Assembly: GCA_965262615.1 (NCBI GenBank)
Contig: OZ253545.1
Location: 992,001 to 1,056,000 of the forward strand
Reading direction: 5' to 3'
DNA from: Alphaproteobacteria bacterium
GTDB lineage: Bacteria > Pseudomonadota > Alphaproteobacteria > GM7ARS4 > G965262615
DNA length: 64,000 bases
The notes beneath the pieces were generated by a model that was not told where the DNA came from, searched no databases, and saw nothing but the letters and a program-made list of their open reading frames with translations. The position numbers were made by a program, and so were the translations under genes. Below are positions 2,053 to 39,494 of this stretch, piece by piece (position 1 is the stretch's first letter; each line of letters starts with the position of its first letter).

Positions 2053-2062
2053 AACAGCGAGC

Positions 2063-3939: not shown

Positions 3940-3942
3940 TTT

Positions 3943-4008: not shown

Positions 4009-4013
4009 TGTGC

Positions 4014-5628: not shown

Positions 5629-5742
5629 TTTTCAATTCCTCAAGAGGCTTTGGCAAGCGCGGGTATTATAACACAATTAGATATCAAAGTAATGTCCCGT
5701 TGTGAGGCACGAGACGATTTCGCGCGCACGAATTACGAATTA
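5629..5742 (-). promoter_or_regulatory. Conserved inter-cassette spacer with extended -10 (TGtTATAAT) and GAGG RBS
   Basis: TATAAT at 5665-5670; homologous to spacers 7592-7711, 9020-9105, 10682-10794. Confidence 0.65.
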
Positions 5743-6942: not shown

Positions 6943-6981
6943 AATTCAATCCTATAATAATTCGGACGGAGGAAAAAGACA

Positions 6982-7560: not shown

Positions 7561-7591
7561 AAAGTAAGCAAATCATCGTCTGTTCATCTCA

Positions 7592-7657
7592 TCAATCCTT
7601 CATGTGATGCTTGGCATGAACGGATTCTACCATCCAATTGGCTATCAAAGCAATGCC
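7592..7657 (-). repeat. In-frame copy of the MFS 3' end (GIALIANWMVESVHAKHHMKD*) containing a TTGCTT...TAGAAT promoter
   Basis: Gap-free alignment to the MFS C-terminus AIAFISNWLIKPVHSKHHMKE* (11505-11570). Confidence 0.85.
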
Positions 7658-7708
7658 CCGTTGTGAGGCATGAGACGATTGCGCGCGCCCGCGTCGCGCG
7701 GCAACAAA

Positions 7709-9019
7709 TTAACGGCATAGCATTTTCTTTGCTTTTGATTTATTTTTGAGGTCGTCATTGTGTTCCAATAAATCGCAAGGTGTGAGTCCATTGTCGGTTC
7801 TGGCATGAATGTTTGCTCCTGCATTGATGAGTTCCTTGATGGTATGAGCATTGCCATTGAGTAATGCAGCAACATGAAGCGGTGTGTAGCCACCGTTGTT
7901 TTTGGCATGAAGATTTGCTCCTGCTTTGGCGATTTCCCTGATTGCCTCAACGCTTTCATCAACGAGTGCGGCGATATGAAGTGGTGTGCCGCCCTTGTTG
8001 TCTTTGGCATTGAGGTCTGTTCCCGCTCTGATGAGTTCCCTGATCATTTCAATTTTGTTATTATTGTTGAGTGCAACAGCGATATGAAGCGGTGTGTAAC
8101 CGGTGTTCTCTTTGGCATTAAGATTTGCTCCTGCTTTGGTGAGTTCCCTGATCATCTCAATGTTGTTGTTATTGTTGAGTGCAACAGCAATATGAAGCGG
8201 TGTGTAACCGGTGTTATCTATGGCATGAACATTTGCTCCTGCTTTGGTGAGCTCTCTGATCAACTCGCTTTTGTTAGTGGATGCAACAGCATGAAGCGGT
8301 GTGAAACCTCTGATGTTTTTGGCATGCACATCTGCTTTTGCGTTGATCAGTTCCCTGATTACCTCAATGCTTTCATTAATAAATATCGCGACATGAAGTG
8401 GTGAGTCATCATTGTTGTCTTCGGCATGAATATTTGCTCCTGCCTTGATGAGTTCCTTGATGACATGAGGATTGTTATTGCTCGCGGCGGCAATATGAAG
8501 TGGTGTGAAACCACTGTCGCTTTTGGCATGAATATCCGCTCCTGCCCCGATGAGTTCCTTGATGGCATGGGGATTGTCATTGAGTAATGCCGCAATATGA
8601 AGAGGTGTGAAACCGTTGTCATTGACGGCACAAACATCCGCTCCTGCATTGATGAGTTCCTTGAAGGCATGGGCATGACCATTTTTTATAGCAACATGAT
8701 GAAGCGGTGTGTTGCCAATGTTATTTTGGGCATTGATATCTGCGCCCGCTTTGATGAGCTCCTTGATGACATGAGCATGGACATTAAATGCAACAGTGAC
8801 ATGAAGTGGCGTGTTGCCCTCTTTATCTCTCATGTTGATATTCACGCCTGCTGCTGTAAATTGTCGCAATCGCGACGGTGTTAAATCACGCCACTGATTT
8901 TTAACATAATTCCAGTCACTTTTGACCATGAGCCGCCAATGAGTTCTCCGAGACAAAGACCTGCCAACGCGCATGGCAGTGGCGGTCAAAGCAAGAGCAC
9001 TACGAATCCACCTCTTCAT
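7709..9019 (-). CDS. Ankyrin-repeat protein (class I, ~10 repeats, degenerate signal peptide)
   Basis: MKRWIRSALALTATAMRVGR start; ANK repeats; TPCDLL...LCR. Confidence 0.92.
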   Translation of the reverse strand: MKRWIRSALALTATAMRVGRSLSRRTHWRLMVKSDWNYVKNQWRDLTPSRLRQFTAAGVNINMRDKEGNTPLHVTVAFNVHAHVIKELIKAGADINAQNNIGNTPLHHVAIKNGHAHAFKELINAGADVCAVNDNGFTPLHIAALLNDNPHAIKELIGAGADIHAKSDSGFTPLHIAAASNNNPHVIKELIKAGANIHAEDNNDDSPLHVAIFINESIEVIRELINAKADVHAKNIRGFTPLHAVASTNKSELIRELTKAGANVHAIDNTGYTPLHIAVALNNNNNIEMIRELTKAGANLNAKENTGYTPLHIAVALNNNNKIEMIRELIRAGTDLNAKDNKGGTPLHIAALVDESVEAIREIAKAGANLHAKNNGGYTPLHVAALLNGNAHTIKELINAGANIHARTDNGLTPCDLLEHNDDLKNKSKAKKMLCR

Positions 9020-9054
9020 TTTTCAATCCTCAAGAGGTTTTGGAAAGAATGAAC

Positions 9055-9083
9055 ATTATCACACAATTGAGATATCAAAGCAA
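9055..9083 (-). promoter_or_regulatory. Putative sigma70 promoter in the conserved spacer
   Basis: TTGCTT-N17-GATAAT; spacer near-identical to 10682-10765. Confidence 0.6.
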
Positions 9084-9129
9084 TGGAAAGGCACGAGACG
9101 ATTGCGCGGCATCTATGAACACTCAATTC

Positions 9130-9735
9130 TCAATTTTCCAGTATTAGATTTTCGGCTTCGCGGCTGTTTCTGAGGGCATTGTTTTGCAACAAGAATTCAT
9201 AGACTCTTTTTCCGTTGTTGTCTCGGGCGTAGGTGCGTGCGCCGGCGAGGATGAGGGTGCGTAGCACCGCCACATTGCTGTTGGAACGAGCGGCGACATG
9301 AAGAGGCGTTCTGCCCCATCCCGTGCGAGCGCGAACGCTTGCTCCCGCCGCAATGAGGCGTTTGGTGACATTGACATCAGAATTCATCGCCGCCGCCCAA
9401 TGCAAGGGCGTGTAGCCACTACCGTCTGTGCGTGTGAGAGATGCCCCCGCCTTGAGAAGCGCATCTATGGTTTTCACATCGCCATAGCCGGCAGCCCAAT
9501 GGATGGCGGCGGAGCGATCCTCACGGTAGATGGTGTGAATATCCGCACCGTCTTGAATAAGTCTTTTCGTCCAGTTGGTTGTGCCTTTGCGGATGGATTC
9601 ATGCAGCGGCGGCACGACATCCACCCCAATGTATCTATTTTTGAGACGCTCCATGAACTGAGCACAGCCGGTAAGAGTCACCGCCGCCATAAAAACAAAA
9701 ACAAAGCGAAAGAGATGAGTCAAGCGGTAATTCAT
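9130..9735 (-). CDS. Ankyrin-repeat lipoprotein (divergent repeat type)
   Basis: Start reassigned to ATG 9735; hydrophobic leader plus lipobox LTGC; TPLHWAA, TPLHVAA repeats. Confidence 0.85.
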   Translation of the reverse strand: MNYRLTHLFRFVFVFMAAVTLTGCAQFMERLKNRYIGVDVVPPLHESIRKGTTNWTKRLIQDGADIHTIYREDRSAAIHWAAGYGDVKTIDALLKAGASLTRTDGSGYTPLHWAAAMNSDVNVTKRLIAAGASVRARTGWGRTPLHVAARSNSNVAVLRTLILAGARTYARDNNGKRVYEFLLQNNALRNSREAENLILEN

Positions 9736-9826
9736 TGGTTCAATTCCTTGTAGAATGGTTACCTTTAGGCAAGGTGAATGACAAAAGGAAGAGGTGAGCG
9801 TTCTCGCGCCGCCGTGAAAGAGGCGA

Positions 9827-17436: not shown

Positions 17437-18780
17437 TCAATCGGTGCAATGGCAGGGGAGATCATCGGTGGCATCGCTGTGTGCTATGTCGGAGGATTTG
17501 TCTTTGATGTGCGTGTAGCTGGAGCCCGAATTCACGCCAAAAAAACCGATGCTCACCTTTTTGCCCCGATTTTCTTGTGAGAAACCATCCGCTTGTCTGC
17601 GGTAACGCTCTTCCATTTGTATCCACCAGTTGATATCGGATGGCGTGCCCGGGATAATGTCAATGCCACTGGATGAATCGTCGTCCAACCGCTTCATGGT
17701 GTTATGGATACCCGCCAGAGCATGAGTGCCTTTCATGAAGCAATACACACAATTGGATAGTTTCAACTCCACAGGAAGTTCTAAATCAAATGCGAAGCTG
17801 TTCCAAAACTCGGTGACTTCTTTTTGATTCACATGGCAATCCACAAGGGGCATATAGACACATTCGTTGGTTTCATTTTCTTCTCGGGAGCGGTGCATGA
17901 TTTTTGCGAAACGGAGCGGCTCGTCCCCTCTGATGCCTAACAGTGAAATATAGCCTACGGCATCATCACCCACCATAGAGGCGATGGCAAACGGTTTTTC
18001 TCGGCGATTGGTGCTTTGCAAAAAGGGCGTGACACCAACGCTGGAAAAATCATCAAACAACTGTGAGGGTCGCCGCAAAGCGCATCGGCGCACATAAGCC
18101 TTTCTTTTGAGAAAGACTTCTTTTGAACTTTTGCCTTTGGCTTTCACATATTGCTCGTATAAATCATCATCGTTGATTTGCTGCTCATCGGCAAAATGAC
18201 CAAACGACGCAGTGGCTTCTTTGTGAGCAAACCATTCGGAAAGAAATGCTTGAGTGGTGAAAATCTTCAGCTGGGATGTGCAAATGCGGATTTGCCGACT
18301 GGGCAGAAAATTGTGATGACTGATTAATTCGTGAAACACCTCGCCACGCCACCTGTATCCATCAGGATTGTCATCACTGTAAGGCTCAGGCTTGACCATC
18401 CTAAAAGAAGAATACCTTTTCCATGTGCCTCTGTAAGCGTCTTCGTAGGTTTGAAATTCAATCCAATAAAAAGGTATTCCATAGGTCTGTTCGCAAATGT
18501 GGGTGCATTGTTTCACGAATTTATAGGTGAGTGGATGCTCGGCGGAGGTGTTATTGAAAATCACGACATCGCCTCTGGCGGCATTGAGTGAGCCACTTTG
18601 CAAAAGAGACATCAAAAGCATCCCACTGGAACGCCCGCCTGAAAATCTGACAATGTGAGGAAAATTCTCGTGGCTTTTATCCGTGTATGCAATGGAAATG
18701 GCTGTCACGATAATTCCTTTGTGAAAATTGATAGAATCTCTGGCGGCAGCAGAATGAAAGGTGGTTGTAATGGGCATCAC
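17437..18780 (-). CDS. PAPS-reductase-like PP-loop (adenine nucleotide alpha hydrolase) protein, mobile-element type
   Basis: FSGGRSSG, NTSAEH, RICTSQLK, GIRGDE, NCVYCF, terminal CHCTD. Confidence 0.8.
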   Translation of the reverse strand: MMPITTTFHSAAARDSINFHKGIIVTAISIAYTDKSHENFPHIVRFSGGRSSGMLLMSLLQSGSLNAARGDVVIFNNTSAEHPLTYKFVKQCTHICEQTYGIPFYWIEFQTYEDAYRGTWKRYSSFRMVKPEPYSDDNPDGYRWRGEVFHELISHHNFLPSRQIRICTSQLKIFTTQAFLSEWFAHKEATASFGHFADEQQINDDDLYEQYVKAKGKSSKEVFLKRKAYVRRCALRRPSQLFDDFSSVGVTPFLQSTNRREKPFAIASMVGDDAVGYISLLGIRGDEPLRFAKIMHRSREENETNECVYMPLVDCHVNQKEVTEFWNSFAFDLELPVELKLSNCVYCFMKGTHALAGIHNTMKRLDDDSSSGIDIIPGTPSDINWWIQMEERYRRQADGFSQENRGKKVSIGFFGVNSGSSYTHIKDKSSDIAHSDATDDLPCHCTD

Positions 18781-19277
18781 TTTTTTGCTTCATCACCAAT
18801 AATTTTGATGACTACATTTATTATTATCTTCATGTAAAAAATGTTTAGTGCAGTCATTGCGAAAATGAACGAGCTCGGCAACAATTTCAAATCAATTGTT
18901 ACTTCAATCCAAGGTAAAATAAATGATGGTAAAAAATTAATGCTCAAAACACCGCCACTATCACTTGTTGCCAGCACCATAAAAATGATAACAAAGCTGA
19001 TAGACGATATTAAGCAAGTGTTAATCCGTTCAAGATACTCCTTGAGGATGTATATCCCTCTTATTTTTCTTTTTTCATCAACGAATTTGTACAGCTCTTT
19101 TGTATAGGAAGAACCATGCAATATAGCCAATGATGCTATGTAAAAACCAAAAAAAATGGAAGAAAATGTCACCAAACTCTGTGCTATGGTGTTAGTCATT
19201 TTCCATTTTAGGCAATAAGCAATCAATAAGACGAGGAAGAATATTAACCTAGATGCTATTTTATGTTCTTCACGCAT
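18777..19277 (-). CDS. Hypothetical membrane protein (~4 TM)
   Basis: Hydrophobic segments; ATG 19277 overlaps the upstream gene end; stop overlaps the next start. Confidence 0.75.
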   Translation of the reverse strand: MREEHKIASRLIFFLVLLIAYCLKWKMTNTIAQSLVTFSSIFFGFYIASLAILHGSSYTKELYKFVDEKRKIRGIYILKEYLERINTCLISSISFVIIFMVLATSDSGGVLSINFLPSFILPWIEVTIDLKLLPSSFIFAMTALNIFYMKIIINVVIKIIGDEAKK

Positions 19278-20115
19278 CCTTCTTTCCTTCGATTTTTGTG
19301 ATGAGAGAGTCTTTGATTTGCTCATGGCTATACATGCCTTGTGCATCTTTTTCTGCCAAAATATCAATTTTTTGGCTGAAACCGTCGCTATTGAAAATAG
19401 CTAATTCATTTTGGTCATCCTTGCCGACACATACTAGAGCATCAATTTCACCGTCAATTTTTGCATTTCTTGCTCCGAAAAAGAAATCAAAGAACTTTTC
19501 CGTGACACTTGCTCGATCAAATTTCACCTCTAAGGTGTAACGAGTTCCTACCTTGTCCAAACCAAAAGGATCTCTTTCCACTGCAAAAATATCCAATATT
19601 TTTTTAGACTTGTTGAAAATATCCTCTGTGAAAGAAACTTTCACTTTATTTATTTCTCTTATTATTTCAGCAAATTCCTCTGCGGTTTTGAAGAAATGCT
19701 TGATAAAAACCCTTCTTTTTAGTTGATGTTTTAAACATTCTTCAAGGAATTTTTTTGCACCAGTAGATATGTAGAGGATGGCAATACCTTGATTTTCGGC
19801 ACAGAGGACGAATAACTGCTTGTTTGTTTCTATCTGTTCTCTTGTTCTCGGGTTATCTTCTTGCTTTTTGCTTGCCGTGTTGAGAACTGTTTGACTATAG
19901 GGAGTAGATGTTCCGTGTTGGGCGTAGAGCCAAAAATACCTATCATCAATGATTTCCTTGTGAATGATGTAGGCAGAGTTTCGGAGCGGAAAATTTTCTG
20001 GGATGTTACTAAAAGCATCAATCAAGTCCTGCACTGAGGCAACCTCATCGCCAAAGGCAAATTTATCCTCAATAACGATATACACTTTGGAAAATCCAAT
20101 ACTCATTTGATGCAT
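19270..20115 (-). CDS. Hypothetical soluble protein, first gene of a three-gene operon
   Basis: 281-aa AT-rich ORF coupled to the TM gene. Confidence 0.75.
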   Translation of the reverse strand: MHQMSIGFSKVYIVIEDKFAFGDEVASVQDLIDAFSNIPENFPLRNSAYIIHKEIIDDRYFWLYAQHGTSTPYSQTVLNTASKKQEDNPRTREQIETNKQLFVLCAENQGIAILYISTGAKKFLEECLKHQLKRRVFIKHFFKTAEEFAEIIREINKVKVSFTEDIFNKSKKILDIFAVERDPFGLDKVGTRYTLEVKFDRASVTEKFFDFFFGARNAKIDGEIDALVCVGKDDQNELAIFNSDGFSQKIDILAEKDAQGMYSHEQIKDSLITKIEGKKDA

Positions 20116-20185
20116 TTAACACCATTACCTGATAATTTGCAATCCCACTAAGAGTTAAAATTTCTTATGCAGCTTTTTCAGAAAT

Positions 20186-20280
20186 TGGCGGATGGGGCGA
20201 GATTCGAGCCATCGGCACTGTTTCCTGCATACACGCTTTCCAAGTGTGCTCCCACCAAAGATGCTAGACGCGCCAACGCC
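20186..20280 (-). pseudogene. Decayed tRNA-Ser(GGA) remnant
   Basis: Minus strand GCACAC-TTGGAAA-GCGTGT anticodon arm, long variable arm, mutated T-loop CTCGAAT, ...ATCC-G-CCA end; 5' half does not pair. Confidence 0.7.
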
Positions 20281-20348
20281 CCCTTATGTCAATGGATGGA
20301 CGCGAGGGAGTTTCCGTTATCAAATTACAATACCACTCATAGTGGTGG

Positions 20349-21338
20349 TCATCCCCATTTTTGTTTGTCGGGGATGACACCGCGCACACCACCTGTGGGG
20401 TCGGTCATATCATCAATGCGGCGGGGGATGAGATGAATGTGGCAGTGGCGAATGGTCTGTCCCGCGCAATCGCCATTGTTGACACCGATATTGAAGCCAT
20501 CTACCAATTTATCCATTTTTTCAATATCCGCTTTGACCTCGTGCAACAGCGATTGAATCCCATTGATTTCGGGCTGATACAATTCAAAATAACTATCAAT
20601 GTGCCGCTTGGGAATAATCAAAGAGTGAAGCCGCGTCACAGGATACTCATCCCGCACGGCGTAGCACATTTCGTTTTGCCGCACAATGCGATCCGAATTG
20701 ATGTCACAAAAGGCGCACCCTTTGACGCGCACTTTGTAGCTCTCAAGCATTTTTCTAAAGTCGGTGGTGTCTCTGTTGCTCTTTGAGGTGTTGCAGCTTT
20801 CACAGAGTGCTTGAAAGTTGGATATGTCATCCGAGCCACCTTTGCTTTTGGGAAGGATGTGGTCGACATGAGCGGGGCTTTCAGTAAAGGGGATGAAACA
20901 AAGCTCACAGTGTCCTTTGGCTCTGGCAATAACGCGATATCTAAAGGCGGGGTCAATAAAACCTTTGCTTGTTGAGGCTTGGGCATTTTTAGGGTTTGAC
21001 AGGTATTTTTCCAATTTATGGTCGCACAGAGCAATGAGGCGGGTCACTTCATCTTGCGACAAGTCACCGAACCCCTTGAGGATGTATGTGTTGCTGTGCT
21101 TTTCGGTGATGCCATGGTTGTCGGTCAGCACTTTGCCCACCATTTTTTTTGTGTTTTTTTCGTATTCTTTAATTTGCTCTGTGTCATTACAGACGATGGC
21201 ACGGGCGATGTCGGTGACGGAAGCCTCGCCCCCTTGTTGCAACAATGTCTTGAGCATGACGGGCTGATAGATATGTTGCATCATCATTTTTTTCGTGATG
21301 AAATGCTCAAGGCGTTGGTAGCTATCAGAGCTGGTCAT
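20349..21338 (-). CDS. HNH endonuclease - HIT hydrolase fusion with N-terminal helical domain
   Basis: CELC...HVDHILPKSKGG...NFQALCESCN (HNH); CAFC, HSLIIPKRH, GQTIRHCHIHLIPR (HIT). Confidence 0.9.
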   Translation of the reverse strand: MTSSDSYQRLEHFITKKMMMQHIYQPVMLKTLLQQGGEASVTDIARAIVCNDTEQIKEYEKNTKKMVGKVLTDNHGITEKHSNTYILKGFGDLSQDEVTRLIALCDHKLEKYLSNPKNAQASTSKGFIDPAFRYRVIARAKGHCELCFIPFTESPAHVDHILPKSKGGSDDISNFQALCESCNTSKSNRDTTDFRKMLESYKVRVKGCAFCDINSDRIVRQNEMCYAVRDEYPVTRLHSLIIPKRHIDSYFELYQPEINGIQSLLHEVKADIEKMDKLVDGFNIGVNNGDCAGQTIRHCHIHLIPRRIDDMTDPTGGVRGVIPDKQKWG

Positions 21339-29200: not shown

Positions 29201-30420
29201 TTAACAGACGTTTGGAGGAACTGCTGCTCAATCAGAAGGTGGCATCGGACTCTGTGGGAGTGAAAAGAGGTGAGGTGTTGACGGCGGAGCGATTGTCATC
29301 ACTGAAAAGTGGTGAGCTGCGTAGGATTTCTGTCAAAGACAGTGAGGTGATGGCAACCATCAAGACATTGCAACAGAGTTTGCAGGTGCAGACCGAGCGT
29401 TTGAAGAGCTCCCTTGATGATGCCGAGGAGCGTATTCAAGCGGGTGATGAATTGCCTCCCAGTGTGCTCAAGGTGGTGAAGGTTTTTGTGGCGGTGAAGC
29501 GCAAGATTCAATCGGGCGATAAGATGGCGGGTCGACACGGCAACAAGGGCGTTATTTCCAAAATTGTGCCTGTGGAGGACATGCCCTACACCGAAGAGGG
29601 AACGCCTGTGGATATTGTGCTCAATCCGCTGGGTGTGCCGTCACGGATGAATGTGGGACAGATTTTGGAGACTCACTTAGGATGGGCGGCGATGGGACTG
29701 GGGCGTCAAGTGGGGGCAATGGCGGCGGCGGTGTGCCGCAAGGAAGCCAGCGTGGAGGATTTGAAAAACCATGTCGTTGACCTCTATGATGATGAAGACA
29801 GTAAAAAACATATCAAAGCCATGAAGGGCGATGATCTGGTGGCATGGGGTGATGCGCTTGCCGAGCATGGACTCAAGTGTGCCACCCCTGTGTTTGAGGG
29901 CGCGCGCGAATCTGATGTCAGTGACTGGCTGAAAAAGGCTGGATTGCACACCAGTGGGCAGGCGCGGCTCATTGATGGCTTGACCGGTGAATTTTTTGAT
30001 CGCGATGTGACGGTGGGATACATCTACATGCTGAAGCTGAATCACTTGGTGGATGACAAAATTCACGCTCGTTCAATTGGTCCTTACAGTCTTTTGACGC
30101 AGCAGCCTTTGGGTGGCAAGGCGCAATCTGGCGGACAGCGTTTTGGCGAGATGGAAGTGTGGGCACTGGAGGCATACGGCGCGGCTTATACACTGCAAGA
30201 AATGCTGACCATTAAATCCGATGATGTCGCCGGCAGAACCCGCACTTATGAATCCATTGTCAAGGGTGAGGAGACCTTTGAGTCGGGCGTGCCTGAATCA
30301 TTCAATGTGCTGGTGATGGAGCTGAAATCATTGGGACTCAATGTGGAACTGACCGAAAACAGCGAGAAAAAAATGCTGGCACAAGCCGCCATTGATCACA
30401 AAGAGAGGGTGTTTCCATGA
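26218..30420 (+). CDS. rpoB: RNA polymerase beta subunit
   Basis: [18 protein letters not shown]. Confidence 0.99.
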
Positions 30421-33400
30421 GCATGATGCGTTATTTTTATGACAAGCAAGAGGTTGCTAAATTTGATTCCATTCGCATTGGCATTGCGTCTCCGGATGAG
30501 ATTCTCTCGTGGTCGCAAGGCGAGGTGAAAAAGCCAGAGACGATCAATTACCGCACCTTCAAGCCTGAACGGGGGGGATTGTTTTGTGCGCGTATTTTTG
30601 GTCCTGTGCGCGATTATGAGTGTTTGTGCGGTAAATATCGCCGCATGAAGCACAAGGGGATTGTGTGCGAGAAATGTGGCGTGGAGGTGACCCTTGCCAA
30701 AGTGCGGCGCGAGCGCATGGGACACATCTCGCTGGCGGCACCGGTGGCACATATATGGTTTTTGCGCTCGCTTCCCAGTCGCATTGGCTTGCTGCTTGAT
30801 ATGACCTTGCGCAATTTGGAAAGCGTTTTGTATTTTGACAATTATGTGGTGGTGACCAGTGGCAACACGCCTCTCCCGCCGGGAGAGCTGTTGTCGGATG
30901 AGCAGTATCAGGATGCGTTGCGGGAGTTTGGTCACGGCAATTTTGAGGCGATGATTGGCGCGCGAGCGGTGCATCACTTGCTGACAGAGGTGGACTTAGA
31001 AGAGGAAGCCGCATTTTTGCGCGAGGATATCAAGGAAGTGACCTCTGATACCAAGCAAAAGAAAATGGTGAAAAAATTGAAGTTGGTGGAGCAGTTCATT
31101 CATTCGGGGGCGCGTCCTGAGTGGATGATTTTGCATGAATTGCCTGTGATTCCTCCTGATTTGCGTCCTCTTGTGCCGTTGGATGGCGGACGCTTTGCCA
31201 CCTCTGATTTGAATGATTTGTATCGGCGCATCATCAATCGCAACAATCGCTTGAAGCGGCTGATTGACCTCAAAGCGCCTGATTTGATCATTCGCAATGA
31301 GACGCGTATGCTGCAAGAATCCGTTGATGCGCTGTTTGATAACGGACGCTTGGGACGGGCGATTACGGGTTCTAATAAGCGTCCGTTGAAATCGCTGTCG
31401 GACATGCTCAAGGGCAAGCAGGGACGCTTTCGTCAGAATTTGCTGGGCAAGAGGGTGGATTATTCGGGACGCTCGGTGATTGTGGTGGGGCCTGATTTGA
31501 AATTGCATCAATGTGGGTTGCCCAAAAAGATGGCGTTGGAATTGTTCAAGCCGTTTGTGCTGGCAAAGCTGGAGAGTTATGACCATGCCCTGTCGCTGAA
31601 GGCGGCGAAGAAATTGGTGGAGCGGGAACGCTCAGAGGTATGGGATATTTTGGAACAGGTGATTCGCGAGCATCCTGTTCTTTTGAATCGCGCCCCCACA
31701 TTGCATCGCTTGGGCATTCAGGCATTTGAGCCTGTGCTGGTGGAGGGCAAAGCCATTCAGCTGCATCCGTTGGTGTGTACGGCGTTTAACGCTGATTTTG
31801 ATGGTGACCAGATGGCGGTGCATGTTCCCATGTCGCTGGAGGCGCAGCTGGAAGCGCGAGTGTTGATGATTTCCACCAACAACATTCTCTCTCCAGCCAG
31901 TGGCAAGCCCATTATTGTTCCCAGTCAGGATATTGTGTTGGGCTTGTATTATTTGAGTTTGCAACGGGTGTCGGCGCGCGGCGAGGGCATGGTTTTTTCC
32001 TCTGTGGAGGAGCTGGAACACGCCTTGAGTCGGGGTGTGTTGGATTTGCAGGCGAGCATTCAATTGCGGATGAATTATGTCACCGATGAGGGCAAGACGG
32101 TGTATGGCAGAGTGCAGACCACGGCGGGGCGCGTGAAGATTGCCGAATTTTTGCCTCTTCATGAGAATGTTCCGTTTTCCTTGATTAATCGTGTTTTGAC
32201 CAAGAAGGATATTAGTCATGCGATGGATGTGGTGTATCGTCACTGCGGACAAAAGGAGACGGTTCTTTTTGCGGATCGCTTGATGCGTCTTGGCTTTCGG
32301 GAGGCGTGTCGTGCGGGGGTGTCCATCGGCAAGGATGATTTGATTATTCCGCGCAGCAAAAATAACTTGGTGCAAGAAGCCAATCAAAAAGCCAAGGATT
32401 TCGAACAGCAGTACTTGGATGGCTTGATCACCCAAGGCGAGAAATACAATAAGGTGGTGGATTTATGGACCAATTGCACCGATGCGGTTGCCGATGAAAT
32501 GATGGGCGAGATTACCCCTCAGGATGAGGGCAAACGGGGCTTTAATTCGGTGTATATGATGGCGCACTCGGGAGCTCGCAGTTCGCGCGATCAGCTCAAG
32601 CAGTTGGCGGGGATGCGGGGTCCGATGGCTCGTCCTTCGGGCGAGATTATTGAGACACCGATTATTTCGAATTTCAAGGAGGGATTGTCGGTTTTGGAGT
32701 ATTTCAATTCCACGCATGGAGCTCGCAAGGGCTTGGCGGATACGGCACTGAAGACGGCGAATTCGGGTTATTTGACGCGTCGCTTGGTGGATGTGGCACA
32801 AGATTGCATCATCACGGAGGAAGACTGCGGCACACGCAAGGGCATTGCCATTGAGGCGGTGATTGAGGGCGGCGAGACCATCTCATCTCTTTATGATCGC
32901 ATTTTGGGACGCTGTGCGGCGGAGGATATTGTTTCTGTGCGAGATGGCAAGGTTCTGGCATCGGCGGGGACACTGATTGATGAAAAAATCGCCCGCGCCA
33001 TTGAAGACGATGGCGTGACCCGTGTCTTATTGCGTTCGGTTTTGACCTGTGAAAGCCGCTCTGGCTGTTGTGCTCGGTGTTACGGGCGAGACTTGGCTCG
33101 GGGGGTTTTGGTGAACATCGGCGAGGCGGTGGGTGTGATTGCGGCTCAATCCATTGGCGAGCCGGGGACTCAATTGACCATGCGCACCTTTCACATTGGT
33201 GGGGCGGCACAGCGCGGGGCTGAGGAATCATCCTTGAAGGCGTTGTGTGACGGAACTCTGCGTTTGAACAAAGCCGATTGGGTTGAGAACGCCGATGGTC
33301 GCTTGGTGGCATTATCGCGCTATGTGGAGCTGGTGCTGGAGGAAAACGGCAAGGAGCGGGCGCGTCACCGTCTTCCTGTGGGGACGATTGTGCCATGCAA

Positions 33401-34604
33401 GAACAACGCTCAGGTGAAGGCGGGGGATTTGTTGGCGGAGTGGGATCCCTACAATGTCCCCATCATCGCCAAAGAGGATGGCACGGTGAGCTACGAGGAC
33501 ATCACACCGGGTTTGTCTATGCGCCAAGAAACCGATGAAACCACAGGCATCGTCAATAACATTATCACCGACTGGCGACAGCGCAAAGGCAGTGAGCTCA
33601 AACCAGCCGTGGTCGTCACCAATGAAAAGGGCACAGAGCATTACCACTTGATGGTGGATATGATTTTGTCGGTGGATGATAAGCAAAAGGTGAAAAAAGG
33701 CGATATTTTGGCTCGCTCGCCGCGTGAATTCTCCAAAACCCGAGACATCACGGGAGGCTTGCCTCGCGTTGCGGAATTGTTTGAGGCGCGCAAACCCAAA
33801 GATGTGGCGGTGCTGGCGGCAATTGAGGGCGTGGTGGAGATGGGAAAAGACTTCAAGGGCAAACGGCGCGTTGCCATCATTCCCGATGAGGGCGAGGAAG
33901 GCAGGCAGGAATATCTCATCGGCAAAGATAAGCATTTGCTGGTGCGCGAGGGCGATCGCGTCAGCCGCGGTGATTTGCTGGTGGAGGGCGACCCCTTGCT
34001 ACAGGATATTTTGGACATATCCGGCGTGGAAGCCATGGCGCATTTTTTGACCAAAGAAATCCAAGATGTCTATCGTCTGCAAGGCGTGAAGATTGATGAT
34101 AAACATGTGGAAGTCATCATGCGCCAGATGATGCGTAAAGTGGAAATTGTGGACGCAGGAGATTCTCACTATCTGGAAAGCGAACAGCTGGATGTGGAGA
34201 CCATGCGCGATCTGGAAGACCAACTGCGAACGGAAGGCAAAACGCCCCCCCGCTATAAGCGCATTTTGCTCGGCATCACCAAGGCGGCATTGAACACCCG
34301 CTCGTTCATATCGGCAGCATCGTTTCAAGAAACCACACGAGTTTTAACCGAAGCGGCAGTGTCCGGCAAGGAAGATGTCCTGGCAGGGCTCAAGGAAAAT
34401 GTCATCGTGGGACGACTCATTCCCGCCGGCACAGGATGCTACATGAATCAATTGCTCCATGAAGCACTGGAGCGAGATCGCAAATCATTGGCAGAACGAC
34501 AAAAAGAAGTGACGAGCAAAGGAACGGAATCTCTTCCCGCCACAGAAGGTGCTCAGGAGAGTGTTCAGCCTCCTCATCACGAAAAAGCCTTTGTGCAACA
34601 ATAA
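30417..34604 (+). CDS. rpoC: RNA polymerase beta' subunit
   Basis: NADFDGD. Confidence 0.99.
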
Positions 34605-34622
34605 ACATCCACGCCAAAACCT

Positions 34623-34651
34623 TTGAATTACCTTATTGTGTGTGATAAAAT
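34623..34651 (+). promoter_or_regulatory. sigma70 promoter, probably leaderless
   Basis: TTGAAT-N17-TAAAAT with TG extension; ATG follows after 6 nt; no SD. Confidence 0.65.
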
Positions 34652-34657
34652 GCCACA

Positions 34658-36418
34658 ATGAGCGACAAAGAAAAACTAATTGCCGAATGGCGAAGCGAGA
34701 TTGAACAAGGTCGTTGGAATGAGAATTTTTGGAAAAATCTCACTCCTGCGCGGTTACAGGAATTCATTGACGCGGATGCAGAAATCAATGCTCCAGACAG
34801 TTGGGGGTTCAGTCCAATTCATCGGATTGCTGAAAACAACGAAAATCCTGCTGTTATCAAAAAACTGACTGGTGCAGGAGCAGATATTCACAGCAAAGCA
34901 TATGGCTCGCCCCCTCTTCTTTATGCCGCCCAAAGTAATAGAGAGCCTGCCATCATTAAGGCACTCGTAGAGGCGGGAGCTAAAATCCATGAAGCAACCG
35001 AAAAATGCGGGAAAAACCAATCTTTTGTTGGAAACACCGCACTGCATTGGGCGGCTAGTTCAAATAAAAATGTTGCCGTTATCAAAGAGCTCATTGATGC
35101 AGGAGCAAATATCTATGAAAAAAATGCGGGTGGCTATACGGCTCATGATTTACTACTATCAAGGAATAGCGCGCTCAAAGACAATACAGAGGCTCAAGAG
35201 TTGTTGCGCGGCAAAACCACTAACAAAACCAGTCGTGATGACAATGATGAATATGCAACATCCATTCGCAATGATGAGTATGAGATGCCTCCTCGCAATG
35301 GATTGGAGGATGACAAGGAATATGCAAAAAAGGTCATAGAAGACTGGCTCACAAAGCCCACCCCTCAGATAGCGCGCCTATGGGGTCACGCAGGAACAGG
35401 CAAGACAACCTTTCTCCGTTCATTGGATTTTGGCAACATCAAACCTAGTTACTGTGCTTTCACAGGCAAAGCGGCAAGCGTCATGCGAAAAAAAGGAATG
35501 AAAAAAGCATCAACAATCCATAAGCTGATTTACATGCCCTATTACGGAAACTTGAACAAACCTAAACTCCGTCACTTTACAAGTAAATTAAACCTTATCA
35601 TCGTTGATGAGTGTAGCATGGTAAGTGAAAAAATGGGATTGGACTTATTGTCTGTTACTAAAAAAATTCTCGTTCTTGGCGATAAATATCAGCTTCCGCC
35701 AATGGAAGGAAAAGGTTTTTTCAATGGTGATGAATGTAATGCCATTGACCTTGAATTGAAAAAAATACATCGCCAAAAAGAGGATTCGCCAATAATAAAA
35801 TTTGCCACCCTCGCCAGAAATGGACAGGAAATACCGTTATCTAACAACACGATTTGCACGGTAGAAGATACTTCTATGCCTAATACCACCGAATCATTGC
35901 ACGAAAAGGGTGACATAATTATCTGTGCGCGAAATGACACAAGACACAAAATCAACGAAGAAGCTCTAACAAGGCAAGGTTTGACAAAAGATTGGCTGAT
36001 GGAAGGGATGCAAATTGTGTGCTTAAAAAACAACTATCGTCTTGAATTGTTCAATGGAACAATATGGATAGTAAAAGAAATCAGGGAAATCAAAGAACAT
36101 ACTGATGGTAAAAAGCAAAAGAGCTATTTAACCGCGGAATGTGTCTTGATGGATGATGAAGGAAATAGGAAAGAAGCTCATGTCATCAACTCTTCTTTCG
36201 GTGAAGATAATTACGATGAGTCACACATCAATAAAAATACCCACGCTGCTTTTGACTATGGCTATGCCATCACTTGTCACAAAGCACAAGGCTCTCAATG
36301 GGAGCGGGTGTCAATCTATGTAGAAATGCCGCGCTCATATGATGATTATAATCAATGGCTCTATACGGCTGCTACACGGGCGCAAAAAAGTCTCTATGTT
36401 TTATTTGCCAACGACTAA
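34658..36418 (+). CDS. Ankyrin-repeat :: SF1B (RecD2/Dda-like) helicase fusion
   Basis: Class II N-cap plus ~3 ANK repeats; GHAGTGKTT, DECSM, GDKYQLPP, IHRQ, TCHKAQGSQW, LYTAATRA. Confidence 0.9.
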   Translation: MSDKEKLIAEWRSEIEQGRWNENFWKNLTPARLQEFIDADAEINAPDSWGFSPIHRIAENNENPAVIKKLTGAGADIHSKAYGSPPLLYAAQSNREPAIIKALVEAGAKIHEATEKCGKNQSFVGNTALHWAASSNKNVAVIKELIDAGANIYEKNAGGYTAHDLLLSRNSALKDNTEAQELLRGKTTNKTSRDDNDEYATSIRNDEYEMPPRNGLEDDKEYAKKVIEDWLTKPTPQIARLWGHAGTGKTTFLRSLDFGNIKPSYCAFTGKAASVMRKKGMKKASTIHKLIYMPYYGNLNKPKLRHFTSKLNLIIVDECSMVSEKMGLDLLSVTKKILVLGDKYQLPPMEGKGFFNGDECNAIDLELKKIHRQKEDSPIIKFATLARNGQEIPLSNNTICTVEDTSMPNTTESLHEKGDIIICARNDTRHKINEEALTRQGLTKDWLMEGMQIVCLKNNYRLELFNGTIWIVKEIREIKEHTDGKKQKSYLTAECVLMDDEGNRKEAHVINSSFGEDNYDESHINKNTHAAFDYGYAITCHKAQGSQWERVSIYVEMPRSYDDYNQWLYTAATRAQKSLYVLFAND

Positions 36419-36541
36419 TTGAGCATCAACTTTCTCTTGTCTCTATTGACGAAACACGGTGAATTGGTGTAGAAGGTTTCTGTGCTGCCTTATTGGCGGC
36501 ACATTACTTATGGAAACGATCTATGATGCAGATGAGGGACA

Positions 36542-36913
36542 ATGCCTACTGTCAATCAATTGGTGCGCCAGCCGCGCAAGTCGGTGGTCAAGCGCAAGAA
36601 GGTTCCCGCCTTGCAATCCTGTCCGCAGAGACGGGGTGTCTGCACACGCGTTTATACCACGACACCTAAGAAGCCCAATTCGGCGTTACGGAAGGTGGCT
36701 CGGGTGCGTCTTTCCAATGGCTTTGAGGTGACCAGTTACATTCCCGGCGAGGGACATAATTTGCAGGAGCACTCATCGGTGTTGATTCGTGGCGGGCGGG
36801 TGAAGGATTTGCCTGGCGTTCGCTATCATATCATCAGGGGTGCATTGGATACCGAGGGCGTGAAGGATCGCCGCCAGCGGCGGTCGCTCTATGGCGTGAA
36901 GCGTCCCAAGTAA
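36542..36913 (+). CDS. rpsL: 30S ribosomal protein S12
   Basis: [17 protein letters not shown]. Confidence 0.99.
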
Positions 36914-36929
36914 CTGTGGAGAATTTGTG

Positions 36930-37400
36930 ATGTCACGGCGTCATTCAGCCAACAAGCGAGAGGTTTTACCTGATGTTCGTTATGGGGATGTGTCTTTGGC
37001 GCGTTTTGTCAATCAGGTGATGGTGTCTGGCAAAAAATCGGTTGCGGAGCGCATTGTGTATGCGGCGTTGGACTATGTGGGGGAACAGACAAAACGCCCT
37101 CCCATTGAGGTTTTTCGTGCGGCGATGGACCATGTGCGCCCAGGGGTTGAGGTGCGTTCTCGCCGCGTGGGCGGTGCGACCTATCAGATTCCGATGGAGG
37201 TGCGTGCCAGTCGAGCCGAGACGCTGGCGATGCGCTGGCTGATTGGCTCGGCGCGCAAGCGCAACGAGAAACGCATGGCAGACCGCTTGGCGCGTGAATT
37301 GCTGGAAGCCGCCGATGGCAGAGGCAGTGCCGTCAAAAAGCGTGAAGACACCCACAAAATGGCGGAAGCCAACCGCACCTACGCTCACTATCGCTGGTAA
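36930..37400 (+). CDS. rpsG: 30S ribosomal protein S7
   Basis: RRVGGATYQ. Confidence 0.98.
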
Positions 37401-37415
37401 CAGGAGTGCAGAATT

Positions 37416-39494
37416 ATGGCTGAACGGCATCCTATTGAACGGTATCGCAACATTGGCATCATGGCGCACATTGATGCCGGCAAGACCACCACCACTGAGC
37501 GCGTTTTGTATTATACCGGACGCACTCACAAGATTGGTGAGGTGCATGAGGGCGCGGCGGTGATGGATTGGATGGAACAAGAACAAGAGCGCGGCATTAC
37601 CATCACATCGGCGGCGACCACATGTTTTTGGAAGGAGCACCGCATTAACATTATTGACACCCCCGGGCATGTGGATTTCACCATTGAGGTGGAGCGGTCG
37701 TTGCGCGTTTTGGATGGTGCGGTGTGTGTGTTTGACGGTGTGGCGGGCGTGGAGCCGCAATCGGAGACGGTGTGGCGGCAGGCGGATCGCTATCGGGTGC
37801 CGCGTTTGTGTTTTGTCAACAAGCTGGATCGCACGGGGGCGGATTTTGATCGGTGCGTCACCATGATTCAGAATCGCTTGGGTGCAGAGCCACTATTACT
37901 TCAACTGCCCTATGGACTGGAGAGCGACCTCAAGGGGCTGATTGATTTGGTCACCATGAAGGCGGTGGTGTGGAAGGACGAAACCCTTGGCAGTGAATAC
38001 GAAGAGGTTGATATTCCTGCCGCTATGCAATCAGAGGTGCAAAAGGCGCGTGAAGCTCTGGTGGAGCGGGCGGTGGAGATGGATGACAGCGTCATGGAAG
38101 CTTACCTTGAAGGCACAGAGCCCGATGTGGAGGCTTTGCGGGGCTGTATTCGTAAGGGATGTTTGGCGTTTTCGTTTGTGCCTGTGTTGTGTGGCTCGGC
38201 GTTTAAGAATAAGGGCGTTCAGCCGTTGTTGGATGCCATTATTCATTATTTGCCGTCACCGTTGGACATTGGCTCGGTGAAGGGCACGGATGTCTCTGGC
38301 GAGAACGAAATGACGCGCGAGGCAAAAGATTCAGAACCATGTGCGGCACTGGCATTTAAGGTTGCGACCGACCCGTTTGTGGGCTCATTGACTTTTTGCC
38401 GCGTGTATTCGGGCACTGTTGAGACGGGGATGTCCTTGCTCAATGTGGTGAAGGATAAAAAAGAGCGGGTGGGGCGCATGATGATGATGCATGCCAATCA
38501 CAGAGAGGATATCAAGAAGGCTCATGCGGGGGATATCATTGCCATTGCGGGACTCAAAAACACCGTGACGGGCGACACACTGAGTTTGTCGGACAAGCCG
38601 ATTTTGCTGGAGAGCATGGATTTTCCTGACCCCGTGATTGAGGTGGCGGTTGAGCCTGAAAGCAAGGCGGATCAAGAAAAAATGAGCTTGGCGTTGGGAC
38701 GCTTGGCGGCGGAAGACCCGTCATTTCGAGTGAGCAGTGATGAAGAGAGCGGACAGACGGTCATCAAGGGCATGGGCGAGCTGCATCTGGAGATTATTGT
38801 GGATCGTATGAAGCGAGAGTTCAATGTGAATGCGTCTGTGGGCGAGCCACAGGTGGCGTATCGGGAGACCATCACCAAGGGCAGTGATGTGGATTATACC
38901 CATAAGAAGCAAACGGGGGGTGCGGGTCAGTTTGCGCGTGTGATTATGTCGTTTGAGCCGTTGTCTGCGGGCGAGGGTTTTGTGTTTGAGTCTAAGGTTG
39001 TGGGGGGGCGCGTTCCCAAAGAGTATATTCCGGGTGTTGAGAAGGGTTTGCGTCAATCCATTGAGGCGGGCATTGTGGCGGGGTTTCCTGTGATTGATTT
39101 CAAGGCGGTCTTGAAAGATGGTGCGTTTCACGATGTGGATTCCAGCGTTCTTGCCTTTGAGGTGGCGGCACGAGCGGCGTTTCGTGAGGCTATTGGCAAG
39201 GCATCTCCTGTGTTGCTGGAGCCGGTGATGCGTGTGGAGGTGGTGACGCCTGAGGAATACATGGGGGATATTATTGGTGATTTGAATTCACGGCGGGGTC
39301 AGGTGTCCGGCATGGAGGCGCGCGGCAATGCGCAGGTGGTGGGGGCGATGGTGCCTTTGGCGTCCATGTTTGGCTATGTCAATGACTTGCGGTCAATGAG
39401 TCAGGGGCGCGCCAGCTATTCCATGCACTTTGATCACTATGAACCCGTGCCTTCCCATGTGGCGGAGAGCATCAAGGAGCGGTACGCCGCTTAA
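37416..39494 (+). CDS. fusA: Elongation factor G
   Basis: [17 protein letters not shown]. Confidence 0.99.

Follow-up and report, generated by a model that had tools for sequence, protein, structure and literature searches.

An ankyrin module fused in frame to a Dda/RecD-type helicase at the rpoC–rpsL junction of an alphaproteobacterial genome

Why should an ankyrin module and a Dda-type helicase share one reading frame between rpoC and rpsL, and what might the product do? Work on Dda/RecD-type helicases has mostly concerned replication and repair, or multi-domain defence proteins in which they supply the motor. The gene discussed here lies in a 64-kb stretch of DNA, referred to below as the window, taken from a reduced genome of 1.54 Mb (single contig, 98.3% complete). 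The source is an uncultured marine bacterium, probably associated with sponges; small shares of the window are contained in runs labelled sponge metagenome, and close relatives of the locus occur in one of these runs, X6. The features on which the argument draws are as follows.

13308-13841, 13911-14594, 14663-15265 and 16622-17320, minus strand: stand-alone ankyrin paralogs without a signal peptide, within 13308..17320
30417..34604, plus strand: rpoC, the upstream core flank; 53 nt lie between its stop codon and the ATG of the fusion
34623..34651, plus strand: promoter-like site TTGAAT-17-TAAAAT with TG, a consensus match only
34658..36418, plus strand: fusion gene, 586 codons and a stop codon
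34658..35212, plus strand: ankyrin module, residues 1-185, with N-cap helices 3-27 and 30-38, three repeats and a C-cap
35213..35311, plus strand: acidic linker, residues 186-218, predicted to be disordered
35312..36415, plus strand: predicted Dda-type SF1B helicase core, residues 219-586, with RecA-like domains 1A and 2A and, at about 445-520, a 2B insert that is SH3-like and rich in beta structure
35384-35407, plus strand: Walker A motif within the helicase core
36481..36503, plus strand: GC-rich hairpin, followed by a weak T tail, in the interval from the fusion stop codon to rpsL, a consensus match only
36542..36913, plus strand: rpsL, the downstream core flank, starting 123 nt past the fusion stop codon

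The in-frame fusion of ankyrin repeats to a RecD2/Dda-like helicase described in the initial annotation is borne out by a single frame of 586 aa in the rpoC–rpsL slot and by its Pfam and PHROG matches. Its start had been placed at 34623, which is the first base of the promoter-like site; the frame stands, but opens at 34658. The gene is A+T-rich, as had been stated, with a GC content of 0.416 and a GC3 of 0.39 against 0.60-0.67 in rpoB, rpoC, rpsL, rpsG and fusA, and its composition is foreign. An insertion of a mobile element with flanking repeats was ruled out, as 34300-36700 contains neither target-site nor terminal repeats, nor any mobility genes. The surroundings had also been called pure core synteny. 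This holds for the rpoC and rpsL flanks but not for the junction, an operon boundary that is often home to unrelated accessory genes: such genes fill a gap of more than 780 nt in 33 of 48 other, mostly alphaproteobacterial, loci, so that position alone means little.

Is the fusion genuine? The ankyrin–helicase join, for which spanning reads had been proposed as a check, is covered without any difference in run X4, by contigs at 35063-35313 and 35284-35873, and in run X5, by one unbroken contig spanning 33000-35307. Further, seven homologs, all metagenomic and 54-69% identical, have the same architecture and the same join; clustering at 50% identity divides them into two groups. Of the seven, P0001 alone has a known genomic context, as an independent X5 contig of 11,098 nt puts it in the same rpoC–rpsL slot; for one further allele (X6) the context is known in part. 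As seven homologs have this architecture and an independent contig places it in the same slot, the fusion is not a misassembly; together with the X4 and X5 contigs, the homologs likewise rule out a stop at the join. When the seven full-length sequences (P0001-P0006 and the protein of the window) are aligned, 194 of the 586 positions do not vary; all SF1 motifs and the linker motif are among them. This conservation, with the architecture common to seven homologs, argues for a genuine fusion maintained by selection. The remaining homolog, P0007, has 362 aa and ends just past motif III despite a contig of 127,691 nt, so that some copies may be broken.

The N-terminal half matches Pfam Ank_2 at residues 55-155 (3.1e-21, 76.2 bits versus a cut-off of 27.3) and Ank (52.8 versus 21.1 bits), and the AF2 model places helix pairs across 53-184 with a pLDDT of about 90 for most of the module. 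With repeats above the gathering score and a capped solenoid in the model, it is an ankyrin domain. The fusion protein has no signal peptide. Its N-terminus and C-cap had been likened to class II ankyrins nearby, and they do match the minus-strand genes 13308-13841, 13911-14594 and 16622-17320. Residues 1-161 are 41.6% identical to the product of 13911-14594, with which they have in common the start M-D-D-K-E-K-L-L-A-E-W and the cap L-K-N/D-N...L-L. Judged by sequence, the module derives from this local signal-peptide-less family. The ankyrin array of the genome extends over 15 kb and holds at least 12 ankyrin genes, one class of which is exported by means of a signal peptide. The ankyrin halves of P0004-P0006 are closer to the stand-alone ankyrin genes of this genome (41-58% identity) than to its fusion gene. 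Sponge symbionts have expanded sets of ankyrin 'eukaryote-like proteins', and ankyrins are also carried by phages; as far as is known these proteins are ankyrin-only, many with signal peptides. The local expansion resembles that of the sponge symbionts, while the fusion differs by its attached enzyme and absent signal peptide. The NCBIfam models of the Dot/Icm ankyrin effectors AnkY, AnkH, AnkG and AnkX scored only 14-23 bits against cut-offs of 500-1400, which places the module outside these families.

The linker is acidic, as had been described, with 11 D/E against 6 K/R at residues 186-222, and its pLDDT falls below 50 at residues 187-204. A motif S-x-D-D-N-D-E (residues 192-198, nt 35231-35251) as well as R213, G215 and L216 are invariant. 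The idea that the linker mimics an SSB tail was dropped, because the Dda-binding part of gp32 is helix 248-270 and not the acidic tip (PMC11551737).

The C-terminal half matches Pfam AAA_30 at residues 237-391 (4.4e-19, 69.4 bits versus a cut-off of 27) and UvrD_C_2 at 534-581 (2.2e-15, 56.7 versus 27.4 bits), and PHROG 325, 'Dda-like helicase', across residues 165-581 (1e-82). The SF1 motifs had been called intact; all are present and every one is invariant in the seven full-length sequences. They comprise G-x-A-G-T-G-K-T at 243-250 (G-H-A-G-T-G-K-T in the window), D-E-C-S at 317-320 and G-D-x-x-Q-L-P-P at 341-348, followed by H-R-Q at 371-373, T-C-H-K-A-Q-G-S at 539-546 and Y-T-A-A-T-R-A at 569-575. 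Motif I (G-x-x-G-x-G-K-T) and D-E of motif II (317-318) are invariant in a 147-row alignment as well. Motifs I-VI thus mark this half as a probable SF1B Dda-like helicase, and its complete motif set suggests a catalytically intact motor. The AF2 model built on the 147-row alignment has a pLDDT of 88.3 and beta strands at 452-510; it was used instead of a model from an 8-sequence alignment, in which the helicase half was unreliable (58.4). Although Pfam SH3_13 stays below its cut-off (24.5 versus 41 bits), the model predicts two RecA-like domains, of which 2A carries an SH3-like 2B insert. A complex prediction of the ankyrin half against the helicase half scored 0.00 and was counted neither way, and the ESM Atlas returned no informative neighbour (top score 0.75, a RecB cluster).

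Which known helicases does this half resemble? Foldseek matches include DSH9 (8jx6, 5.9e-21), T4 Dda (3upu, 2.0e-20) and RecD2 (3gpl, 4.2e-19). The fold is that of T4 Dda (3upu, 8s9i, 8gme), with a TM-score of 0.65 normalised to Dda length and 442 Foldseek columns aligned between the AF2 model of the fusion and the 439 aa of Dda. The SF1B motifs, the compact size of about 370 aa and the SH3-like 2B insert are common to the helicase half and T4 Dda/PHROG 325. However, T4 Dda lacks an N-terminal domain, whereas the fusion carries an ankyrin module in cis via the acidic linker; Dda-like phage helicases belong to the phage replication module, whereas the fusion gene is chromosomal and solitary. 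Dda is instead recruited in trans, a gp32 helix contacting its 2A domain (PMC11551737). The RecD2 of Deinococcus radiodurans (3e1s, 3gp8, 3gpl; TIGR01448) has a similar SF1B core (sequence E 2.7e-15) but an N-terminal domain of its own where the fusion has ankyrin repeats. As TIGR01448 reached 118.5 bits against a cut-off of 500, over model positions 322-507 only, and the N-terminus is ankyrin, the fusion is not a RecD2 ortholog. The models of RecD of RecBCD also fell short (TIGR01447, 67.8 versus 310.15 bits; NF008127, 37.8 versus 671), as did that of the Ti-type relaxase TraA (TIGR02768, 66.2 versus 590.45), which matched the helicase part alone. Nearest, at 36-42% identity, are stand-alone proteins of 360-430 aa named 'ATP-dependent RecD-like DNA helicase' from Alphaproteobacteria and their phages, such as S. 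meliloti UIJ96650.1 and Rhizobium phage RHph_I65 QIG74988.1. In the tree they are sister groups of the fusion clade, which is monophyletic by its helicase halves and set off by a long stem (1.31 substitutions per site). The PHROG match and 843 phage records matching this half, all below 60% identity and 33-37% identical in the 25 listed, point to a phage-type ancestry. It is unique in the genome, as the sole helicase of its family there, and 40 related genomes contain no close stand-alone ortholog; it therefore does not belong to the housekeeping genes that these relatives have in common.

Other N-terminal partners of such helicases offer a further comparison. P0192 (730 aa) and P0227 (707 aa) join a cpYpsA (SLOG) domain to the same helicase subfamily. 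The single-gene PADLOC families PDC-S53 and PDC-S68 have a design like that of the fusion, with a C-terminal RecD/Dda-type helicase behind a variable N-terminal part. The matches to PADLOC are fragmentary (PDC-M16A, 1.1e-39 in three stretches; PDC-S53, 3.5e-19 at residues 186-427). PDC-M16, PDC-S53, PDC-S68 and type IV CRISPR RecD gave no full-length match, the hits covering a generic helicase core or ankyrin only, and no partner genes of the multi-gene candidate PDC-M16 adjoin the fusion, whose neighbours are rpoC and rpsL. The PDC families are candidates awaiting testing (Payne et al., bioRxiv 10.1101/2024.01.29.577857).

The initial annotation knew of no ankyrin-fused form and took the gene for a lineage-specific chimera. 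Searches of phages, plasmids, genomes, metagenomes and the literature agree, and the fused form is confined to a small clade of seven homologs on the long stem described above. Neither the 843 phage records nor 270 plasmid records include a single one that covers both halves, and the architecture is absent from the 40 related genomes. Fused relatives were found neither among the matches listed from contigs of GTDB species genomes, where a junction-only alignment gave 23 pattern matches and 0 related sequences, nor in JGI metagenome contigs and IMG/VR. The best 150 matches from 1.84 billion cluster representatives show the fused form in its own clade only. An ankyrin Pfam family occurs in none of 27 matched proteins of 1027-2930 aa, and ankyrin repeats in none of the 208 helicase-only proteins collected. 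A check of domain architecture, as had been suggested, confirmed ANK plus AAA_30 plus UvrD_C_2, and this combination was not found outside the clade. Among the matches listed, the literature (sponge-symbiont and AAA_30 papers by title and abstract) contained no ankyrin-fused RecD/Dda/SF1 helicase. As far as these searches reach, an ankyrin-tethered Dda/RecD-type helicase is apparently undescribed.

What sets the locus apart is its variation. The X5 contig is colinear with the window through rpoC, the fusion, rpsL, rpsG and fusA. To the left 116 differences fall in 2,308 nt and to the right 77 in 1,750 nt, the flanks compared (rpoC, rpsL) being among the slowest-evolving genes, but across nt 35307-35982, the middle of the helicase, the two are less than 80% alike. 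The N-terminus encoded by the contig equals that of P0001 at 27/27 residues, and of these 27 codons 11 differ with a change of amino acid and 1 by a synonymous change alone. The same second allele is found in X1 (depth 5.4 of 14.4) and X4 (9.0 of 21.2), so two alleles coexist within single runs. The window and P0001 are 84% identical in the ankyrin part and 55% in the helicase middle, P0004 and P0006 49% and 93%, and between alleles the ankyrin modules can be as low as 42-49% identical. Separate phylogenies of the halves, a further check that had been proposed, gave a divided outcome: unlinked branch lengths fit far better than proportional ones (2dlnL 313, df 10, p 3e-61), but the topologies of the two halves show no significant conflict (AU p 0.31), and a second split put to this test was already contained in the best tree. 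Recombination is therefore argued from the ratios of branch lengths, and strong shifts of rate, specific to domains and lineages, could give rise to such ratios as well. On these comparisons the two halves appear to have unlinked histories and the alleles to be mosaic. In one fixed rpoC–rpsL slot the population thus keeps a set of coexisting alleles that recombine and are deeply divergent. Every strain compared has the fusion, and neither an empty site nor any other presence/absence variant was seen among them; an X5 joint skipping 33816-37656 has just 21 letters on one of its sides and was disregarded as evidence of an empty site. What is new is the combination of near-identical flanks around strongly divergent helicase middles, coexisting alleles and unlinked histories of the halves, which makes this locus an arms-race candidate in an uncultured symbiont.

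How might such a protein act? The fusion would be a cytoplasmic single chain in which a four-unit ankyrin solenoid, serving as protein-recognition module, is connected to a Dda-type SF1B helicase through some 33 residues of flexible acidic linker. By analogy with T4 Dda and RecD2, the motor would be monomeric and ATP-driven, moving 5'->3' on single-stranded DNA, unwinding duplex and stripping proteins. The ankyrin module may set the place and timing of the motor, whether through contact with a partner protein or by keeping the motor inactive until such a partner arrives. Against phages or mobile DNA, the ankyrin sensor could steer the helicase to the invader's replication and recombination intermediates and so dismantle them. 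Of the three functions first suggested (sensor-effector defence, translocated effector, array remodelling), sensor-effector defence fits best with hypervariable, mosaic, coexisting alleles in a fixed A+T-rich slot. Accepted tentatively, then, is a single-gene conflict or anti-phage protein with a swappable ankyrin module that targets the helicase. Phage-type ancestry, foreign composition and the fixed slot with its hypervariable alleles count in favour, as do the SLOG fusions of the same helicase subfamily and the generic matches to PADLOC candidates. In known defence systems that contain a helicase, the motor comes together with a nuclease or with partner genes. The fusion protein contains no nuclease, toxin or other effector or killing domain; this and its neighbours, rpoC and rpsL, count against defence, as do the failure to match any curated PADLOC defence family and the lack of an empty-site variant, unlike many defence islets. 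In its fullest form the proposal is doubtful: a new type of immunity, conferred by a single protein free of nuclease and toxin, in which an exchangeable ankyrin reads a protein of a phage or mobile element and the Dda-type motor dismantles the invader's intermediates, maintained as a balanced, recombining polymorphism in a fixed core slot of a marine-animal symbiont whose co-resident strains differ in recognition. If the ankyrin module does set target specificity, the fusion would be a natural modular case of helicase retargeting by repeat-domain swap, and its partners could reveal what these bacteria fight or talk to.

Rather unlikely, yet deserving weight, is a role in DNA maintenance, with a captured phage-type Dda domesticated for fork clearance, recombination or repair and tethered by its ankyrins to a bacterial partner such as RNA polymerase or SSB, the position after rpoC providing co-expression. 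Dda helps forks past RNA polymerase. The protein is the only helicase of its family in a reduced genome and is present in every strain compared; its gene follows rpoC closely, with no terminator-like site in the interval; stand-alone relatives are solitary and chromosomal in other Alphaproteobacteria, for example on S. meliloti pSymB; and the gp32 contact with Dda 2A (PMC11551737) sets a precedent for recruitment through protein contacts. However, a conserved partner such as RNA polymerase or SSB requires neither swapped ankyrin modules nor ones so dissimilar, the helicase surfaces are far more divergent than the near-identical flanks, and three genomes of the same order have no ortholog, rpoC and rpsL being adjacent in two of them. 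As a housekeeping adaptor, the fusion would be merely a lineage-specific curiosity. Divergence and mosaicism would equally suit a host-interaction gene, and modulation of host phagocytosis has been proposed for the ankyrin proteins that sponge symbionts, and the phages of these symbionts, carry. An exported, eukaryote-like effector acting on host-cell proteins or DNA would accord with these hypervariable alleles, the ankyrin array and the relatives in sponge-metagenome run X6, and one TolC-type outer-membrane ORF keeps type I secretion possible. It is nevertheless improbable, as the protein lacks the signal peptide of the array's exported class, ends in helicase motif VI and a conserved tail with no secretion signal, and scores far below the cut-offs of the Dot/Icm models. 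The T4SS/T6SS markers VirB4, VirD4 and TssC were not found in the 98.3%-complete genome, which weakens the case for translocation; a single FHIPEP gene may just be part of the flagellar exporter, and SF1B helicases are not known to be secreted.

Foreign composition, a phage-like helicase, solitary occurrence and the truncated P0007 would all be expected if a phage or mobile element had left a remnant stranded in a tolerant intergenic slot, where it persists without selected function. Against this, six full-length homologs at 54-69% identity keep the frame and every catalytic motif, flanking repeats and mobility genes are absent, and IMG/VR and phage records hold no fusion relatives, making a remnant more improbable still. 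It is very hard to credit that the helicase was recruited through its ankyrin domain to recombine or remodel the arrays of ankyrin genes. Although the ankyrin modules of fusion alleles look exchanged with the stand-alone pool, homologous recombination between paralogs accounts for this, ankyrin domains bind proteins and not ankyrin-coding DNA, and nothing ties the protein to arrays at least 17 kb away. Exchange of the module is an outcome of recombination and not a demonstrated activity of the fusion protein. Weighed together, these points leave anti-phage or conflict function as the reading that is tentatively retained.

The non-coding flanks add a few details. Known RNA families gave one chance-level match in 34400-36700 (E 0.067, 23.6 bits versus a gathering score of 90). 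The hairpin upstream of rpsL may be a terminator or a piece of the rpsL leader. The gene had been credited with its own promoter; a promoter-like site is there, but as a consensus match only, and the runs listed as containing the window include no RNA run. Its predicted -10 box ends 6 nt before the ATG and a Shine-Dalgarno sequence is absent, so the arrangement is of leaderless type. The motif t-t-g-t-g-t-g-a-t-a-a is similar to sequence found upstream of three ankyrin genes with a signal peptide, those at 5628, 9019 and 10681.

The gene lies between rpoC and rpsL and encodes a protein in which an ankyrin module precedes a helicase. The features discussed here are as follows.

34658..36418 (+), fusion ORF of 586 aa, between rpoC and rpsL
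30417..34604, rpoC, the upstream flank of the fusion gene
36542..36913, rpsL, the downstream flank of the fusion gene
2542-17320 (- strand), ankyrin array of at least 12 genes
17437-21338 (-), ORFs adjoining the ankyrin array, just before tRNA-Tyr and tRNA-Gly genes

Pfam assigns residues 55-155 to Ank_2 (3.1e-21), 237-391 to AAA_30 (4.4e-19) and 534-581 to UvrD_C_2 (2.2e-15), and residues 165-581 match phrog_325, 'Dda-like helicase', in PHROGs (1e-82). In an AlphaFold2 model built from a 147-row alignment (mean pLDDT 88.3, pTM 0.68), residues 1-185 form two N-cap helices, three ankyrin repeats and a C-cap, while the helicase half consists of two RecA domains and, at about 452-510, a beta-rich insert. 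The linker between them (186-222) is acidic, as the initial annotation had described it, with 11 acidic versus 6 basic residues, and pLDDT falls below 50 at residues 187-204. The closest PDB structures found by Foldseek were the deep-sea Dda-like helicase 8jx6 (5.9e-21) and T4 Dda 3upu (2.0e-20), followed by RecD2 3gpl (4.2e-19). The protein is an SF1B Dda-like helicase bearing a new N-terminal module. Assignment to RecD2 was rejected at 118.5 bits against a curated NCBIfam cut-off of 500, as were RecD and TraA, with scores far under their cut-offs.

The fusion itself was confirmed by homologs. Among the 120 matches listed from a clustered-protein search (5.8 billion proteins, 8000 candidates scored, 1451 at E <= 0.001), seven proteins, P0001-P0007, have Pfam families of both kinds, ankyrin and helicase, at 54-69% identity; all come from metagenome assemblies and none is named. 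P0007 has 362 aa and stops just past motif III on a contig of 127,691 nt, and may be a disrupted copy or allele or reflect a frameshift in its assembly. When the window protein was aligned with P0001-P0006, 194 of 586 positions were invariant across the seven full-length sequences. These include all SF1 motifs, whose intactness had been claimed, the linker motif S-x-D-D-N-D-E (192-198), R213, G215 and L216. The ankyrin repeat count varies, with one extra in P0004 and P0005 and one less in P0006. The fusion has an intact Dda-type motor tethered to a cytoplasmic-class ankyrin module, and both are under selection. Since the seven helicase halves form one clade (support 1.0) among 140 stand-alone relatives, on a long stem of 1.31 substitutions per site, they point to a single origin of the fusion.

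In a cluster-representative library of 1.84 billion entries, only P0001 and P0007 matched across both halves among the best 150 of 53,573 matches, and the 262 proteins collected split into those matching both halves (seven), the helicase half alone (208) and the ankyrin half alone (47). Matches covering 80% of the fusion were found in none of 843 phage and 270 plasmid records. None of 40 related genomes holds a full-length match, the best outside the fusion's own genome being ankyrin-only (6.7e-22). Pattern scans of GTDB species genomes, JGI metagenome contigs and IMG/VR returned no fused relative, none of 27 longer proteins (1027-2930 aa) containing this helicase has an ankyrin family, and no description of an ankyrin-Dda/RecD-type helicase fusion was found in the literature. 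Separately arisen fusions of ankyrin repeats to a more distant SF1B helicase could lie among lower-ranked matches. Within reach of the searches made, the architecture is restricted to a single small clade and has no earlier description, in agreement with the lineage-specific chimera proposed earlier. Two relatives of its helicase, P0192 and P0227, carry an N-terminal circularly permuted YpsA (cpYpsA) SLOG domain (PF12694; 3.4e-37 and 6.2e-44) in place of the ankyrin module.

The array at 2.5-17.3 kb contains two classes of ankyrin gene. Class 1 has signal-peptide-like N-termini (M-K-x-W-I-F-I-A-L..., ending L-L-C-R); class 2 is without a signal peptide and starts M-D-D/N-K-E-K-L-L-A-E-W. The N-terminus and C-cap assign the fusion to the latter, and its residues 1-161 share 41.6% identity with the stand-alone gene at 13911-14594 (- strand), which bears out the suggested kinship to nearby ankyrins, and 44% with another at genome position 787 kb. 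No second copy of the helicase half was found in its own 1.54-Mb single-contig genome. The fusion gene is AT-rich, as had been noted (GC 0.416, GC3 0.39 versus 0.60-0.67 in its flanks); GC3 of the ankyrin genes is 0.37-0.44, with one outlier at 0.57. The proposed promoter of its own corresponds to a promoter-like consensus match, TTGAAT-17-TAAAAT with TG, that stops 6 nt 5' of the ATG and resembles the upstream regions of signal-peptide ankyrin genes. No Shine-Dalgarno sequence is visible before this ATG, so that the promoter-like site has the geometry of a leaderless type; purine-rich leaders are present at the stand-alone paralogs without a signal peptide. The array is broken up by an MFS transporter gene (11505-13244) and two coiled-coil ORFs (15465-16567). 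The adjoining ORFs at 17437-21338 may be a small defence-type islet: a 447-aa ORF has a weak SspD/BrxP-like (PAPS-reductase-type) PADLOC match (1e-9), a 329-aa HNH + HIT fusion has a ThsC-like match (1.6e-10), and two ORFs are without any family.

The closest EF-G proteins (72% identity) belong to MAGs labelled Alphaproteobacteria and Rhodospirillaceae, and EF-G puts the bacterium among deep-branching Alphaproteobacteria. Across 48 other loci with both genes, mostly alphaproteobacterial, rpsL lies 191 to 6803 nt beyond RpoC residue 1340 (2106 nt in the window). For 33 of these loci the interval is longer than 780 nt, so that the claim of pure core synteny needs qualifying. Assorted ORFs, none related to the fusion gene, fill the 27 widest gaps examined; the gene therefore occupies an operon boundary where accessory genes are often inserted. 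Of three genomes from the same order, two have rpsL directly next to rpoC, and the remaining one has a spacing of about 630 nt. A search for repeats or mobility genes flanking the fusion found none. In many Alphaproteobacteria the gap holds 1-6 kb of unrelated genes, and in Bradyrhizobium (loci L094, L098, L099, L103) it spans 5.4-6.8 kb, including two ORFs of about 680 aa. At the same-order locus L152 (G001:C13:7000-16500), RpoC matches in several pieces, with residues 16-1188 at 1351-4824 and 977-1382 at 6076-7335, about 1.2 kb apart, which suggests a large insertion or split in rpoC.

At least 1/20 of the window's sampled words occurred in each of 11 public sequencing runs, and contigs of four were compared at 33000-38000; runs X1-X4 come from a single study, and the source sample may be among them. 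The contig from X5, labelled marine metagenome, is 11,098 nt long, the length on record for the contig of P0001, and is colinear with the window over rpoB/rpoC, the fusion, rpsL, rpsG and fusA. It differs from the window at 116 positions in 33000-35307 and 77 in 36251-38000, while most of 35307-36251 is less than 80% alike and only 35982-36165 reaches 80%; the unaligned stretch opposite 35307-35982 is of near-equal length (693 versus 675 nt). Its 19 listed differences in codons 1-27 reproduce the P0001 N-terminus at 27/27 residues, with 11 of these codons changed in amino acid and one synonymously only. This second allele accompanies the window allele at a depth of 5.4 of 14.4 in X1 and of 9.0 of 21.2 in X4. 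In X6, labelled sponge metagenome, flanks are 93-97% alike to the window and helicase pieces 79-87%, and on one contig yet another distinct allele runs from its 3' end into rpsL and on through fusA. No reliable empty-site joint was seen in the four runs. As the divergence greatly exceeds that of the flanks, at synonymous sites too, relaxed constraint since the strain split was rejected as its source; either the alleles predate the strains or recombination imported them. A contig in X6 skips 96 nt at the rpoC 3' end (window 34515-34612) and the X5 contig has a 5-nt insertion after 34612, so strains differ in the length of the RpoC C-terminal tail and of the spacer that precedes the fusion.

The two halves of the fusion differ in how they diverge between alleles.

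Identity between fusion proteins (ankyrin half; helicase middle; helicase C-terminus)
Window and P0001: 84%; 55%; 70%
P0004 and P0006: 49%; 93%; 95%
P0002 and window group: 67-78%; 57-61%; 70-81%
P0002 and P0004-P0006: 38-51%; 72-80%; 82-85%

In a partition model, separate branch lengths for the halves beat proportional ones (2dlnL 313, df 10, p 3e-61; BIC 10692 versus 10942). The conflict between their topologies is not significant (AU p 0.31), and strong domain-specific rate shifts thus remain an alternative to recombination for the unlinked halves. The ankyrin halves of P0004-P0006 are closer to this genome's stand-alone ankyrin genes (41-58%) than to its fusion, which may come partly from more consensus-like repeats. 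The slot is fixed and its fusion alleles are divergent, coexisting and mosaic, a pattern that makes the fusion a reasonable candidate for experimental follow-up.

By family, the helicase half would use ATP to move 5'->3' on ssDNA, unwind duplexes and displace proteins, and the ankyrin repeats would bind proteins. The favoured, though tentative, reading is a single-gene conflict protein whose ankyrin module would provide target recognition. The main weakness of this reading is that the fusion has no nuclease or toxin domain; its PADLOC matches are also generic, the PDC families matched being candidate defence families (bioRxiv 10.1101/2024.01.29.577857). That the fusion is a helicase domesticated for maintenance and fitted with an adaptor is somewhat unlikely and a functionless remnant quite unlikely, while the initial annotation's idea that the helicase remodels the ankyrin arrays is highly improbable. 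That annotation's interpretation holds in part: its lineage-specific chimera stands, and its translocated effector is weakened. A host-directed role is unlikely, as no VirB4, VirD4 or TssC was found in the 98.3%-complete genome, although it does have a single FHIPEP gene and a TolC-type ORF.
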